From a virus (lineage: Duplodnaviria > Heunggongvirae > Uroviricota > Caudoviricetes): a stretch of DNA of 15,047 bases. Positions within the stretch are counted from its first letter, which is position 1. Each line of letters begins with the position of its first letter. Below the pieces are notes generated by a model. The model did not search any database, had not been told where the DNA came from, and saw only the letters and a list, made by a program, of their open reading frames with translations. Below are positions 6,653-12,642 of the stretch, piece after piece. The stretch lies in IMG/VR virus record IMGVR_UViG_2529292716_000006; one strand, given 5' to 3'. The position numbers were made by a program, and so were the translations under genes.

Positions 6653-6695
6653 TGAGGTGTACTGGCAATAGCGGACACTACCATTTGTTCTTTTT

Positions 6696-7514
6696 TTAAG
6701 CAGCCATCTGATGATATTTTTCCCTGAAGGCTGCCGGGGAGATATTCCCCAGACGAGAGTGACGACGCTGACGATTGTAGAAAATCTCAATGTATTCCCG
6801 TATTACTGAGATGGCTTCATCCCGGTTATTAAAACGATAGTGGCTCAGGCTCTCATTTTTCAGCGTTCCCCAGAAGCTTTCCATCGGAGCGTTGTCGTAA
6901 CAGTTACCTTTACGCGACATTGATGTTTTCAGACCAGACTGCTCCTGTATGACCCGGTAATCGTATGCGCAGTACTGTGAACCTCGATCAGAGTGGTGGA
7001 TTAGCCCGGCAGGTGGGCGCTGGCTCCTGAGCGCCATAAACAGGGCTTTACCTGTCAGCTCTTTTGTCATGCGCTCTCCCATGGCGTAGCCGACAATTTC
7101 GCACGTATAAACATCTTTGATGCCAGCGAGGTACAACCATCCCTCCTGTGTGGCAACATACGTCAGGTCCGCCACCCAGACCTGATTTGGTGCTGTAGGA
7201 GCGAACGTCTGGTTCAGCAGATTTGGCGCAACTGGCAGATTGTGGTTCGAGTTCGTAGTCGCTCTGAACTTGCGTTTCTGCTTACAGCGTAGCCTTAGCT
7301 CCTTACGAAGACGTGCCAGTCGGTCACGACCAACGATGATGCCATTCTCTGCCAGCTCCGTCTGGAGCCGCCGGGTTCCATATGTTTCGCGAGTGCGGAT
7401 ATGTGCCACCTTAATCTCCAGTTTTAGCCGCTCATCACTTTGTTTTCTGTCTGAGGGTTCATGCTGTACCCAGTTGTAATAACCGCTCCTGGATACACCA
7501 AATACCTGACACAT
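6696..7514 (-). CDS. IS600 OrfB, transposase catalytic (DDE) part
   Basis: 272-aa ORF typical of IS3-family OrfB, expressed as an OrfAB fusion by programmed -1 frameshifting at the A7G slippery run (T-run on the plus strand at 7595-7601). Confidence 0.9.
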   Translation of the reverse strand: MCQVFGVSRSGYYNWVQHEPSDRKQSDERLKLEIKVAHIRTRETYGTRRLQTELAENGIIVGRDRLARLRKELRLRCKQKRKFRATTNSNHNLPVAPNLLNQTFAPTAPNQVWVADLTYVATQEGWLYLAGIKDVYTCEIVGYAMGERMTKELTGKALFMALRSQRPPAGLIHHSDRGSQYCAYDYRVIQEQSGLKTSMSRKGNCYDNAPMESFWGTLKNESLSHYRFNNRDEAISVIREYIEIFYNRQRRHSRLGNISPAAFREKYHQMAA

Positions 7515-7549
7515 CGCTTCAATGGGAAATTGTTGTCGCCATTGTTCGA

Positions 7550-7852
7550 TTAACGCGTATTTTTCAGCGACTCCTGTGCAAAATACGCTGTTGCTTTTTT
7601 TAATATATCTCGCTCAAGGCGAGCTTCATTTAACGCCTTACGCAGTTGCAGAATTTCAGATTCCAGTTCAGCCACCGTGCGGGAACCAGGAGTACCGAGC
7701 CCTTTTCTGGCGGCGGTAACCCATTGTCCTAAAGTGCCTTCAGGAAGAGATAATCGGGAAGCGCCTTCACTGATCGAAAGTTGATTTTCAAGAACCGTTC
7801 TGACAGCTTCGGCTTTGAACTCTTTAGAGTAACGTTGGGTTTTTCTGCTCAT
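7550..7852 (-). CDS. IS600 OrfA, helix-turn-helix / leucine-zipper transposase N-terminal part
   Basis: 100-aa ORF ending ...ERDILKKATAYFAQESLKNTR with the slippery AAAAAAAG near its 3' end. Confidence 0.9.
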   Translation of the reverse strand: MSRKTQRYSKEFKAEAVRTVLENQLSISEGASRLSLPEGTLGQWVTAARKGLGTPGSRTVAELESEILQLRKALNEARLERDILKKATAYFAQESLKNTR

Positions 7853-7924
7853 TATTAGCTCCTTCTGATGCCATTCTATTTCAGGAAGGAGTGTCCGTTA
7901 AACTCAGGCTACCTCATCCTTCCA

Positions 7925-7951
7925 GGCCCATCCGCTCCGGTGGGCCTTTTT
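7925..7951 (+). terminator. Terminator-like hairpin, 3' end of module copy C
   Basis: GGCCCA-TCCGCTCCGG-TGGGCC followed by TTTTT. Confidence 0.5.
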
Positions 7952-7987
7952 ACTGCAGAAAACAGGTTCCCCGTTAAATGCTATGTT

Positions 7988-8222
7988 GCTCACAATTCAG
8001 TAAGTTGACAGTTGCCTGTCAGACTGGGCATTTGTTAAAAAAATTTCGCATGGTGAATCCCCCTGAGCGGAGGGGCGACTGGTGACGGTATAATCTCTGA
8101 TTATCAAAACGAGAATGACGCGGGTTTAGTGGCACCGGGCTGAACTCACCGGGAGGCACCCGGCACCATGTGCATGATGATACAGATACGCGGCTTTAGC
8201 CCCTCTCCGGAGGGGTTTTCTT
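7988..8222 (+). repeat. Structured non-coding module, copy B (candidate sRNA or leader upstream of nanS-p)
   Basis: Same ordered blocks as copy A. Contains GGTATAAT at 8087-8094. Ends in hairpin GCCCCTCTCCGGAGGGG plus TTTTCTT, followed by an opposite-strand terminator-like hairpin at 8229-8257 (A7 then GCCCGCG...CGCGGGC). Confidence 0.45.
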
Positions 8223-8450
8223 GTGGGCAAAAAAAGCCCGCGCTGGGAGACGCGGGCGGCAAGGAATAAACAATAAAACGTGAAGTAATATTTCAGCTGG
8301 CGAATAATACCCCATAGTAATCACTCTGCGCAACTGCGCGGTCTTTTTCGAATTGCGGGCTGTCGTCTCTCTTCTGCCATTGTCCTGTAACTTCCGGACT
8401 TCAGCCCGCTCCTTATTTTACTCACAATATTATCCCGGCCGGGAGGATTC

Positions 8451-10988: not shown

Positions 10989-11042
10989 CTTTTTGCAGTT
11001 GGCTTTCCAGTATCTTTCATTGGTAGCATCCTGATAAATATC

Positions 11043-11096
11043 CATGAGCGCAAAAATCAAATACGGCCTGTCAGCTGCTGTTCTGGCGCTGATTGC
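11043..11096 (+). pseudogene. Endolysin remnant: first 18 codons of an RrrQ-like SAR lysozyme
   Basis: MSAKIKYGLSAAVLALIA is a signal-anchor-release-like N-terminus matching, from memory, the start of the Qin lysozyme RrrQ. Similarity stops at 11096, where the frame runs into the tandem array and terminates at 11212-11214. Confidence 0.4.
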
Positions 11097-11100
11097 AAAA

Positions 11101-11216
11101 TGGCATCTGAATCGATCGCAGTTTGGCATTCGAATCGATCATGATTTGGCATCCATCTCCGATCACAGTTTGGCATCACAATCGATCACGATTTGGCATA
11201 CTTCCGATCATTGATT
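11101..11216. repeat. Tandem array of five imperfect 23-24-bp repeats (TGGCAT-N5-6-CGATC-A-N-GATT), each with one GATC
   Basis: Units at 11101-11123, 11124-11146, 11147-11170, 11171-11193 and 11194-11216. GATC sites at 11114, 11137, 11161, 11184 and 11206 (spacing 23, 24, 23, 22 bp). Confidence 0.85.
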
Positions 11217-11421
11217 GGAATTCGCCAGTCACTCCGGGAATTAACTCTTTTCACCACAGTCTCCATTGCCGTGTTTAAACCAGTGGAGACGTCAATGTCC
11301 AAAAAGAGAAAATCCAGGAGCACTATGGAAACTTGTTTTAAGATCCTTCAGCTCAAGTTCGATAAGAAGCTGACTAACTGAGGTGTACTGGCAATAGCGG
11401 ACACTACCATTTGTTCTTTTT

Positions 11422-12240
11422 TTAAGCAGCCATCTGATGATATTTTTCCCTGAAGGCTGCCGGGGAGATATTCCCCAGACGAGAGTGACGACGCTGACGA
11501 TTGTAGAAAATCTCAATGTATTCCCGTATTACTGAGATGGCTTCATCCCGGTTATTAAAACGATAGTGGCTCAGGCTCTCATTTTTCAGCGTTCCCCAGA
11601 AGCTTTCCATCGGAGCGTTGTCGTAACAGTTACCTTTACGCGACATTGATGTTTTCAGACCAGACTGCTCCTGTATGACCCGGTAATCGTATGCGCAGTA
11701 CTGTGAACCTCGATCAGAGTGGTGGATTAGCCCGGCAGGTGGGCGCTGGCTCCTGAGCGCCATAAACAGGGCTTTACCTGTCAGCTCTTTTGTCATGCGC
11801 TCTCCCATGGCGTAGCCGACAATTTCGCACGTATAAACATCTTTGATGCCAGCGAGGTACAACCATCCCTCCTGTGTGGCAACATACGTCAGGTCCGCCA
11901 CCCAGACCTGATTTGGTGCTGTAGGAGCGAACGTCTGGTTCAGCAGATTTGGCGCAACTGGCAGATTGTGGTTCGAGTTCGTAGTCGCTCTGAACTTGCG
12001 TTTCTGCTTACAGCGTAGCCTTAGCTCCTTACGAAGACGTGCCAGTCGGTCACGACCAACGATGATGCCATTCTCTGCCAGCTCCGTCTGGAGCCGCCGG
12101 GTTCCATATGTTTCGCGAGTGCGGATATGTGCCACCTTAATCTCCAGTTTTAGCCGCTCATCACTTTGTTTTCTGTCTGAGGGTTCATGCTGTACCCAGT
12201 TGTAATAACCGCTCCTGGATACACCAAATACCTGACACAT
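11422..12240 (-). CDS. IS600 OrfB transposase
   Basis: Identical 272-aa translation to 6696-7514. Confidence 0.9.
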   Translation of the reverse strand: MCQVFGVSRSGYYNWVQHEPSDRKQSDERLKLEIKVAHIRTRETYGTRRLQTELAENGIIVGRDRLARLRKELRLRCKQKRKFRATTNSNHNLPVAPNLLNQTFAPTAPNQVWVADLTYVATQEGWLYLAGIKDVYTCEIVGYAMGERMTKELTGKALFMALRSQRPPAGLIHHSDRGSQYCAYDYRVIQEQSGLKTSMSRKGNCYDNAPMESFWGTLKNESLSHYRFNNRDEAISVIREYIEIFYNRQRRHSRLGNISPAAFREKYHQMAA

Positions 12241-12275
12241 CGCTTCAATGGGAAATTGTTGTCGCCATTGTTCGA

Positions 12276-12578
12276 TTAACGCGTATTTTTCAGCGACTCC
12301 TGTGCAAAATACGCTGTTGCTTTTTTTAATATATCTCGCTCAAGGCGAGCTTCATTTAACGCCTTACGCAGTTGCAGAATTTCAGATTCCAGTTCAGCCA
12401 CCGTGCGGGAACCAGGAGTACCGAGCCCTTTTCTGGCGGCGGTAACCCATTGTCCTAAAGTGCCTTCAGGAAGAGATAATCGGGAAGCGCCTTCACTGAT
12501 CGAAAGTTGATTTTCAAGAACCGTTCTGACAGCTTCGGCTTTGAACTCTTTAGAGTAACGTTGGGTTTTTCTGCTCAT
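12276..12578 (-). CDS. IS600 OrfA
   Basis: Identical 100-aa translation to 7550-7852. Confidence 0.9.
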   Translation of the reverse strand: MSRKTQRYSKEFKAEAVRTVLENQLSISEGASRLSLPEGTLGQWVTAARKGLGTPGSRTVAELESEILQLRKALNEARLERDILKKATAYFAQESLKNTR

Positions 12579-12642
12579 TATTAGCTCCTTCTGATGCCAT
12601 TCTATTTCAGGAAGGAGTGTCCGTTAAACTCAGGCTACCTCA

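Follow-up and report, generated by a model that had tools for sequence, protein, structure and literature searches.

Two IS600 copies of different age bracket the nanS-p and lysis segment of an eroded prophage in Shigella sonnei-type chromosomes

The window, a stretch of 15,047 nucleotides, is a lambdoid prophage that IS elements have heavily eroded, and its place is the ompW-trpA site of a chromosome of Shigella sonnei type (Table 1). Its nanS-p and lysis genes lie between two IS600 copies that derive from separate insertion events, copy 2 and then copy 1, and therefore the direct repeats are very probably an accidental by-product of IS600 expansion, having not come in together as one transposon. 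Copy 1 inserted recently and in the simple manner; copy 2 marks an old deletion junction, and it is from the right end of copy 2 that more DNA has repeatedly been lost.

IS600 copies and the prophage around them

Both elements are ordinary copies of IS600, an insertion sequence that has expanded in Shigella, and they share length, ends, orfA/orfB organization, A7G motif, rve transposase and 3-bp duplication with this member of the IS3 family, with no differences. The ends are of the TG...CA type (TGAGGT...ACCTCA) and form imperfect inverted repeats that match at 23 of 40 terminal positions; orfA codes for 100 aa, and orfB is in the −1 frame, open from sense position 304 and overlapping the end of orfA at 367, with the A7G slippery motif at sense position 316. 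In the finished genomes, gene callers give the fused transposase 385 aa; it matches NCBIfam transpos_IS3 (E = 1.1e-99, 334 bits against a cut-off of 160), and the Pfam domains HTH_Tnp_1, HTH_21 and rve (DDE) are recorded for it. Full-length matches of 99.9% in E. coli RefSeq genomes bear the name "IS3-like element IS600 family transposase", so that the naming rests on PGAP-labelled copies as comparison sequences. Simple insertion is accompanied by a 3-bp target duplication, TCC/TCC at copy 1 and CAA/CAA at a separate IS600 specific to the chromosome L017.

The earlier note on this DNA had described two identical direct copies, which is what the window contains: they align with 0 mismatches (100%) in direct orientation, both transposase gene sets are on the minus strand, and no difference able to block recombination was found. 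The exact run common to both is 1265 bp (6652-7916 and 11378-12642), 1 bp more than the element, because a chance C precedes each copy; the DNA between them measures 3462 bp, and the whole IS600-segment-IS600 unit 5990 bp. In the finished genomes the two copies have 0 differences in L008 and L020 and 1-2 substitutions elsewhere, a comparison that omits position-by-position mismatch counts of 63 and 113, which stem from compensating indels in long-read assemblies; the perfect identity in the window could come in part from one consensus placed at both sites of a 2012-type draft contig, but the near-identity in these finished genomes speaks against this. Regarding the third copy, its inverted orientation was also correctly described, since 1-287 is the exact reverse complement of 6653-6939, at a distance of 6365 bp from copy 1. 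This left copy is full length in the finished genomes; it is partial here because the draft contig of which the window is the whole (AKNE01000010.1, 15047 bp) ends within the IS, and it has no target duplication, its flanks being GGA and AAA in the IS orientation, which, as for copy 2, is what rearrangement would leave.

Table 1. Features of the window, with positions counted from its first letter
Feature	Position	Strand	Remarks
Third IS600 copy, 3' end	1-287	+	inverted relative to copies 1 and 2; cut by draft contig end
Lambdoid prophage, early-to-late region	288-6652	+	collinear with E. coli 042 prophage at ompW site
sok/hok, DUF968, rusA	within 288-6652		
Q antiterminator	3466-4287		
DNA methylase	4860-5918		
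Three tRNAs	5959-6208		
STnc100 copy 1	6285-6474		
TCC target-site duplication of copy 1	left 6650-6652, right 7917-7919	.	matching empty site elsewhere
IS600 copy 1	6653-7916	-	1264 bp; orfA 7550-7852, orfB 6696-7514, A7G frameshift site
Bracketed segment	7917-11378	+	STnc100 copy 2, nanS-p, holin, ydfR, endolysin stub, ISSso4-like fragment
STnc100 copy 2	8019-8228		
nanS-p-type SASA-family carbohydrate esterase	8451-10304	+	617 aa, intact; Pfam DUF1737, SASA, DUF6645
Class II holin gene	10455-10670	+	71 aa; coordinates transferred from L001 12005-12220
DUF1327/YdfR gene	10674-10988		after holin gene
Endolysin (lysozyme R) stub	11044-11096	+	~18 codons; matches E. coli 042 lysozyme gene until 11096
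ISSso4-like IS21-family 5' end	11094-11378	+	terminal repeats and ~first 27 istA codons
IS600 copy 2	11379-12642	-	1264 bp, identical to copy 1; flanks AAC/GCC
Truncated IS21	12643-14461	-	istB without 3' end (184-185 of ~265 codons); istA with frameshifts unique to the window
IS21 left end (TGTCAGCGCC...)	at 14461		
yifB (comM) fragment, chromosomal gene	14462-14710	-	
IS1 end	14711-15047	.	cut by contig end

The arrangement of 1-12642 recurs at 99.92-99.98% identity in at least 12 distinct finished Shigella sonnei-type chromosomes (L001-L007, L009, L010, L019 and L020, and L008 from position 373 onward), and at least 13 match it at 99.9% or better; for two of the 12, published papers give the species as S. 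sonnei. Because independent finished chromosomes reproduce it, 1-12642 is not an assembly artefact, the objection that the earlier note had raised against itself. That a draft assembly misplaced or collapsed repeat copies would fit a 15-kb contig that is complete, ends within IS600 and IS1, has a cluster of indels of its own in IS21 at 13727-14310, and joins IS21 to yifB as no other sequence does; nonetheless, all four IS600 junctions are present at 99.92% identity or more in those chromosomes, which already refutes an artefact for 1-12642 and makes this explanation of the duplicated arrangement extremely improbable.

The only suspect part of the window is that to the right of about 13700. The element adjoining copy 2 is, as the earlier note had it, a truncated IS21-family element with minus-strand istB and istA (IS21_help_AAA match with E = 7e-60, together with transpos_IS21 matches, and DNA 98.8% identical to IS21-labelled elements), and the point at which istB is truncated is the copy 2 junction itself. 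Six IS21 differences at 13727-14310 belong to the window alone and look like draft-sequence errors, and the IS21-yifB join is likewise peculiar to it: in finished genomes the yifB fragment belongs to the order ilv-IS1-yifB'-IS21-yifE, far from the prophage, and the right-hand 1.3 kb of the contig may have been joined on chimerically by way of IS21. The idea that the IS21 of the window is a recombinant of the prophage and yifB copies, which would have accounted for the yifB flank, was dropped, the two genomic IS21 copies being essentially identical over this stretch.

Deletion junction at copy 2 and its nested states

The comparison with related genomes that the earlier note had proposed as a way to the ancestral arrangement supplied both empty copy 1 sites and an intact counterpart of the prophage. 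The latter is the lambdoid prophage of E. coli 042 (NC_017626.1, about 1.404-1.450 Mb), at the ompW site between ompW' and yciEFG-trpA; it has ompW' and trpA as common neighbours with the window and shares with it the order hok, DUF968, rusA, Q, methylase, three tRNAs, two STnc100 copies, nanS-p, holin, ydfR and lysozyme, at 89-99% identity. It differs in having no IS elements and in keeping the lysozyme gene, Rz, terminase, the head and tail genes, and yciEFG. Relative to it ~10.5 kb is missing from the window, from the endolysin body to a head-tail joining gene, a size that follows from the end of the lysozyme stub near 1021 and the IS21 junction at 11560 in 042 coordinates.

This absence, together with AAC and GCC flanks that carry no duplication, bears out the reading of copy 2 as a rearrangement or deletion junction. 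The further claim that the rest of the prophage had been removed stands in part: endolysin body, Rz and head genes are gone, but the tail genes persisted in the ancestral state, as shown by L008 and L009, where the IS21 fragment is still succeeded by tail genes Z to L, and by L017 and L022, where Z to H remain behind it. The truncation of the endolysin gene by IS600 was not borne out, because an ISSso4-like IS21-family fragment cuts this gene at about 11094-11097, after ~18 codons. The exact first base of the fragment falls within 11091-11097, and over ~285 bp the fragment shares ~95% identity with the left end of an element that carries an istB PGAP-labelled "ISSso4 family"; the BLAST alignment has 316 columns, of which ~30 bp are unrelated flank, so that only the first ~285 bp of the element are present. 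Copy 2 is placed within the istA 5' end of this element, and thus it has IS21-family fragments on both sides, each from a different element.

As for copy 1, the earlier description of a simple insertion with a clean TCC duplication held: TCC flanks it left and right, and the empty site that this predicts (..gcta TCC ttcc..) occurs in L017, L022, L021 and E. coli 042. Two of the three empty-site assemblies L017, L022 and L021 are sound, and they are S. sonnei-type by synteny; in L021 (CP029794.1, 4.54 Mb) each IS is internally collapsed (IS600 to 216+233 bp), and it was used solely for the empty site of copy 1, the notion that it is a genome without most IS sequence being rejected since it is unreliable for IS structure. 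L017 and L022 carry copy 2 with the same AAC and GCC junctions and are without copy 1, hence copy 2 is older than copy 1.

These observations very probably reflect a three-step order of events, with the direct repeats as its by-product. An ISSso4-like element would have inserted into the endolysin gene, and IS21 just upstream of tail gene Z. IS600 would then have entered, and the DNA from the istA 5' end of the ISSso4-like element to the middle of the IS21 istB would have been lost, ~10.5 kb that began with the endolysin body and took in Rz, terminase and head genes, leaving ISSso4'-IS600(copy 2)-'IS21 without target duplication. Much later, within S. sonnei, copy 1 would have landed upstream of nanS-p, in the spacer that separates the two STnc100 repeats, in a clean copy-out/paste-in event creating the 3-bp TCC duplication. 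The route that formed the copy 2 junction is one that we infer: the likeliest would be two direct IS600 insertions followed by RecA-dependent recombination between them, and the same product would also follow from an adjacent deletion made by the transposase. Among the genomes compared, no intermediate turned up, neither one carrying two IS600 copies nor one showing AAC...AAC or GCC...GCC as a duplication, and in a test of an inversion model none of the three local IS600 copies matched another as reciprocal target-duplication partner.

The right end of copy 2 is present in three nested states among the strains, so deletions anchored on this copy keep occurring. The right flank starts at 12643 in the window, L009, L017 and L022; in L008 it starts at 12814, with a further 171 bp lost; and in L001-L007, L010, L019 and L020 it is the tail-fibre region, collinear with 042. 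The last state appears to have lost roughly 13-15 kb more, an estimate that takes the tail region of the S. sonnei ancestor to have equalled that of E. coli 042 in length. The IS600 transposase might have made the copy 2 junction and its nested variants directly, through intramolecular one-ended or adjacent deletion rather than homologous recombination: three distinct right flanks that start exactly at the same IS600 end are the classical signature of IS-anchored nested deletions, and one of the deletions, that in L008, removes no more than 171 bp. However, insertion nearby followed by recombination yields the same end product, and the sequence alone cannot tell the two routes apart; moreover, IS3-family elements move via a copy-out/paste-in circle intermediate, and adjacent deletions are not normally produced in this way (general knowledge). 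Direct action of the transposase is accordingly the weaker candidate, with perhaps a modest chance of being right.

Recombination between the direct repeats

Direct repeats of kilobase length give rise to duplications and deletions through RecA-dependent exchange. It is plausible that copies 1 and 2 can support unequal sister-chromatid exchange, with tandem duplication as its product, or an intrachromosomal deletion of 4726 bp. The proposal of the earlier note that they serve as a recombination substrate holds insofar as they are identical enough for homologous recombination, but the predicted events are absent from the two sets of large contigs, 30 and 37, that were compared: in these consensus assemblies, which cannot reveal rare subpopulations, there was neither deletion nor tandem duplication of 7917-11378, nor inversion of the 6.4-kb segment 288-6652, nor any contig with two nanS-p copies or with a methylase-IS600 junction lacking nanS-p. 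Such variants are expected solely as rare subpopulations; they are fixed in no genome examined.

A comparable system is the Shigella dysenteriae type 1 stx region. [quoted passage not shown] In S. dysenteriae 1 there is an IS600 upstream of stx (PMC7819885), IS elements flank the stx region of this species (PMC4193171), and a deletion of roughly 20 kb that includes stx is documented (PMC11413625). The two loci are alike in that each is a lambdoid late region in a Shigella chromosome made defective by IS, and the segment in the window has the long, near-identical direct repeats (1264 bp, 100%) expected at the bounds of such an amplifiable unit; the loci differ in place and cargo, sapC-ycjW with stx in one case and ompW-trpA without stx in the other, and also in that copy-number variants are reported for the former, with none seen here in the 30 and 37 contigs. 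The prophage of the window is stx-negative, yet its late-region layout is that of Stx phages.

That the bracketed segment actively amplifies and deletes as the stx region does, with copy-number changes of nanS-p and holin at appreciable frequency that are put to biological use, would suit identical 1264-bp direct repeats only 3462 bp apart and a nanS-p gene that stays intact while the adjacent lysis genes are destroyed. It is nevertheless unlikely, given that the contigs hold neither a doubled nanS-p nor its loss between methylase and IS600, and that no selection for amplification is known here. Nor does the IS-cargo-IS layout, whose direct orientation resembles that of a compound transposon, make the pair and its cargo a composite transposon inserted or mobile as one unit. 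Tn9 and Tn10 likewise consist of two copies of one IS around unrelated cargo; here no duplication surrounds the unit, whose outer flanks are TCC and GCC, the cargo is native prophage DNA, collinear with its neighbours in the intact prophage of E. coli 042, and the IS copies arrived at different times, L017 and L022 having the cargo and copy 2 without copy 1. In plasmids, no record had the whole unit (the best covered 80% at 87% identity, and none reached the ISSso4' end), and none of the E. coli genomes searched holds 80% of the window. A composite transposon is thus refuted as the origin of the arrangement, and has next to no chance as an account of it. A match spanning exactly 6653-12642 in phage LC744180.1 (Stx1a_EH2115) was considered as an IS600-flanked analogue and set aside, this phage having one IS600 alone, far from nanS-p.

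It would be bolder still, and is improbable, that either the right end of copy 2 is an unusually active directional deletion generator that erodes the ompW prophage stepwise in S. sonnei, or the pair of copies gives rise in vivo to amplified nanS-p arrays with a fitness effect in the gut; a directional generator, if true, would fit the three nested states.

Place of the locus in IS-driven genome decay

The locus is an ordinary, already sequenced case of IS-driven genome decay, with no new mechanism or element type. The IS elements recorded as resident in S. sonnei 53G include IS600, IS21 and ISSso4, and recent activity of IS600 in S. sonnei has been reported (PMC7373316). Work on IS-mediated genome reduction and rearrangement in Shigella (Hawkey et al. 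2020, PMC7373316; S. sonnei reference-strain paper, PMC12795559) likewise shows IS600 insertions specific to a lineage, deletions and inversions flanked by IS, and IS junctions that vary between strains; the present case is a single locus. Its importance is small beyond bookkeeping, although it offers a clear, datable example of IS600 expansion dismantling an S. sonnei prophage, with a deletion junction that is old, a clean insertion that is young and nested losses that continue. The presence of copy 1 and the right-flank state of copy 2 could serve as structural lineage markers. Finally, some caution is due in annotation, as the ISSso4-like fragment that interrupts the endolysin gene is easily overlooked.

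IS600 copies and their prophage context

A 1264-bp element occurs twice in the window, in the same orientation and with no mismatch between the two copies, according to a repeat search and direct comparison; the shared exact run is 1265 bp, as each copy is preceded by a chance C, and the segment between copy 1 and copy 2 extends over 3462 bp (7917-11378). Regarding its identity, the element has TGAGGT...ACCTCA ends, an orfA of 100 aa, an orfB in the -1 frame, and an A7G slippery motif in the overlap; orfB matches the NCBIfam IS3-family transposase model (E=1e-99), and RefSeq E. 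coli genomes contain full-length matches (99.9% identity) under the annotation "IS3-like element IS600 family transposase". By these sequence criteria, the element is IS600. The flanking triplets are TCC/TCC for copy 1 and AAC/GCC for copy 2; these flanks and the coordinates of the copies had all been read correctly in an earlier note on this DNA. The stretch 1-287, when reverse-complemented, equals 6653-6939 exactly and thus represents the end of a third, inverted copy, which is partial because the contig ends within IS600: an exact-protein look-up identified the window as the complete 15047-bp draft contig AKNE01000010.1 (assembly GCA_000268225.1), with ends inside IS600 and IS1.

The possibility that the IS600 pair is an assembly artefact, named in the earlier note as what would refute its claim, is ruled out because window 1-12642 is reproduced, at 99.92-99.98% identity and with the same four IS600 junctions, in finished chromosomes of 4.8-5.0 Mb retrieved via look-ups of the nanS-p esterase and of the methylase; CP041322 and CP022672 of this set are named in papers as Shigella sonnei genomes. 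Within the finished genomes, copy 1 and copy 2 differ by 0-2 substitutions, and they are identical in L008 (S. sonnei 866, CP022672.1) and L020, two of the related loci compared, as in the window.

The surrounding region is the late half of a lambdoid prophage and holds, in order, sok/hok (a type I toxin-antitoxin pair), DUF968, rusA, antiterminator Q, and DNA methylase, followed by three tRNAs, two copies of the STnc100 RNA family, the 617-aa SASA/nanS-p esterase, a class II holin, and the YdfR gene. In E. coli 042, the same chromosomal position, between an ompW remnant and yciEFG-trpA, is occupied by a collinear prophage that is intact and free of IS elements; it was taken as proxy for the ancestral state. 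The STnc100 pair, placed between the tRNAs and nanS-p, is present in the E. coli 042 prophage as well; this doubling of the RNA is the source of direct repeats (82-94%) at 6255-6420 and 7989-8170. The nanS-p esterase frame is intact, whereas the adjoining lysis genes are destroyed.

Features of the window (window coordinates)
Feature	Position	Strand	Remarks
IS600, left copy	1-287		inverted
sok RNA	1127-1302		112 bits
Hok-family ORF	1240-1452		
tRNA-Arg gene	6042-6118		
STnc100, first copy	6285-6474	+	Rfam, 124 bits (gathering score 47)
IS600, copy 1	6653-7916		
STnc100, second copy	8019-8228	+	Rfam, 161 bits (gathering score 47)
nanS-p esterase ORF	8451-10304		
Endolysin gene start	11044		
ISSso4-like fragment	~11094-11378		
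IS600, copy 2	11379-12642		
IS21, left end	14461		
yifB (comM) fragment	after 14461		249 bp
IS1	from 14711		

Copy 1 and the junction at copy 2

Copy 1 lies between the two STnc100 copies, with its transposase genes antisense to the phage late operon. Its predicted empty site (gcta TCC ttcc) was found in E. coli 042 and in three assemblies that otherwise share the locus, namely L022, L021 (CP029794.1), and L017, which we take to be HE616528.1, the 53G chromosome. The TCC duplication and the surviving empty sites indicate that copy 1 is a young, clean transposition within S. sonnei, in line with the simple insertion proposed in the earlier note. 53G has been assigned to lineage II, and the young age of copy 1 agrees with the recent IS600 activity reported in S. 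sonnei (PMC7373316). In L017 alone, the DUF4014 gene near ompW holds a further IS600 (L017 1000-2263) bounded by a clean CAA/CAA duplication, a second case of fresh IS600 insertion into the same prophage.

Copy 2 has no target duplication. To its left, the match to the E. coli 042 lysozyme gene stops at 11096, and the stretch from about 11094 to copy 2 shares ~95% identity with one end, the left (terminal repeats and first ~27 istA codons), of an IS21-family element whose istB is labelled "ISSso4 family" by PGAP. It follows, as a correction to the anatomy given in the earlier note, that this ISSso4-like element, and not IS600, truncates the endolysin, and that copy 2 sits inside it. The cut falls after ~18 codons; because ORF 11044-11214 runs through the ISSso4-like fragment, the latter is easily taken for endolysin coding sequence. 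On the other side of copy 2 lies IS21 proper, a different element on the opposite strand, with istB cut at codon 184-185. On the E. coli 042 map, the lysozyme stub reaches to about 1021, and the outer IS21 end falls at 11560, shortly before tail gene Z; ~10.5 kb have thus been replaced by ISSso4'-IS600-'IS21. Gone with them are Rz, the terminase, portal and head genes, together with the lysozyme body and some of the head-tail joining gene. This agrees with the deletion junction that had been proposed for copy 2. The accompanying claim, that the junction removed the rest of the prophage, does not hold, since tail genes are retained beyond the IS21 fragment: L008 and L009 keep Z to L, and L017 and L022 keep Z to H. 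The copy 2 junctions are also found in genomes that lack copy 1, so the event at copy 2 predates copy 1.

The right flank of copy 2 exists in three states, every one starting at exactly the same IS600 end. In state 1, the flank starts from 12643 (window, L009, L017, and L022); in state 2, seen in L008, it starts from 12814, with 171 bp more of istB missing; in state 3, that of most genomes (L001-L007, L010, L019, and L020), it is the tail-fibre region, which continues to trpA and is collinear with a more downstream part of E. coli 042. Judged by this collinearity, state 3 would correspond to an additional loss of roughly 13-15 kb. These nested losses may have arisen in two steps, with IS600 inserting nearby and the direct copies then recombining, or via transposase-mediated adjacent deletion; both are possible, and the sequence alone cannot tell one from the other.

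Possible recombination between the IS600 copies, and the left flank

RecA-dependent exchange between kilobase repeats makes recombination between copy 1 and copy 2 a reasonable expectation. Its products would be a 4726-bp deletion leaving a single IS600, or a tandem duplication, while an exchange of copy 1 with the left copy would leave 288-6652 inverted. The earlier note had predicted such amplification, deletion, and inversion variants, and none occurred in the contigs read: two nanS-p genes were found in 0 of 30 contigs with nanS-p, and neither the lack of nanS-p downstream of the methylase nor the inversion of 288-6652 was found in any of 37 contigs with the methylase, these two sets being overlapping. 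Recombination between the IS600 copies is a reasonable expectation that was unobserved in these contigs.

An origin of the whole IS600-segment-IS600 unit as a composite transposon is excluded, because there is no target duplication around it and the plasmid search returned no plasmid with the bracketed segment in full, the best one covering 80% of it at 87% identity. No E. coli genome holding 80% of the window was found.

The left copy also lacks a target duplication (GGA and AAA in the IS orientation; site at window 288-290 and L014 2359-2645). The E. coli 042 DNA expected immediately to its left is, in S. sonnei, 1.8 kb away and inverted, joined to a putative integrase remnant beside ompW that was read from the sequence and has no domain match; TCC is present at both breakpoints. 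Such an arrangement suggests an inversion, one of whose breakpoints coincides exactly with the IS600 end. In L020, the left copy has a different outer flank, and in L008 the left IS600 is lost, and another element of the IS3 family stands at window position 373. L008 also has an extra insertion of ~1336 bp (L008 6307-7642; its copy 2 junction is at 14194) at window ~6093-6105, inside the tRNA-Arg gene.

The earlier note had referred to reported IS600-flanked amplification and loss of the Shiga toxin locus in S. dysenteriae type 1, and a paper under a corresponding title was published by McDonough and Butterton in 1999. The stx region of S. dysenteriae 1 is a defective lambdoid prophage with insertion sequences on its flanks (PMC4193171), made defective by IS insertion and rearrangement, and a roughly 20-kb deletion taking stx is documented (PMC11413625). 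The IS-flanked stx region is thus confirmed; IS600 is confirmed only upstream of stx (PMC7819885), not as a boundary of the amplicon. Overall, the observation in the earlier note is correct and its interpretation largely sound, with corrections on what cuts the endolysin, on the tail genes, and on recombination, which was unseen. Decay of Shigella prophages driven by IS elements is already known biology, and the locus, found in many public genomes, is a textbook example of it that fits the published surveys on structural variation and IS activity in S. sonnei (PMC7373316, PMC12795559).

Right end of the window and minor variants

At the right end, the left end of IS21 is joined to the yifB fragment, a join that is unique to the window within the collection. 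The 24 contigs read, finished S. sonnei-type chromosomes among them, have the fragment in the arrangement ilv-IS1-yifB'-complete IS21-yifE, far from the prophage. In addition, istA at 13727-14310 has four single-base indels and two substitutions that are unique to the window contig and split the gene into two ORFs; they are absent from the prophage and yifB copies of IS21 in finished genomes, which are otherwise essentially identical to each other, and are probably draft-sequence errors. The join is either a real exchange between IS21 copies at distant loci in the window strain, which would amount to a large inversion spanning from the trp to the ilv region, or a chimeric join through the repeat in the draft assembly; in both cases, the IS600 finding is unaffected.

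The exact nanS-p esterase sequence was found in thousands of collection blocks, and in most of them the longest contig carrying it is only 2-5 kb, which fits short-read assemblies broken at both IS600 copies. L017 and L022 have a C-to-T change at 8970 of this gene (R174C). Between nanS-p and the holin gene, a T-run at 10412 is one T shorter in the window than in all seven related loci used for a base-by-base comparison; the probable cause is a homopolymer error or an indel specific to the strain. Finally, L017, L022, and L021 have an extra 250 bp at 1760/1761, in the Rem-like gene region upstream of DUF968, while the window and most other genomes are without this insert.
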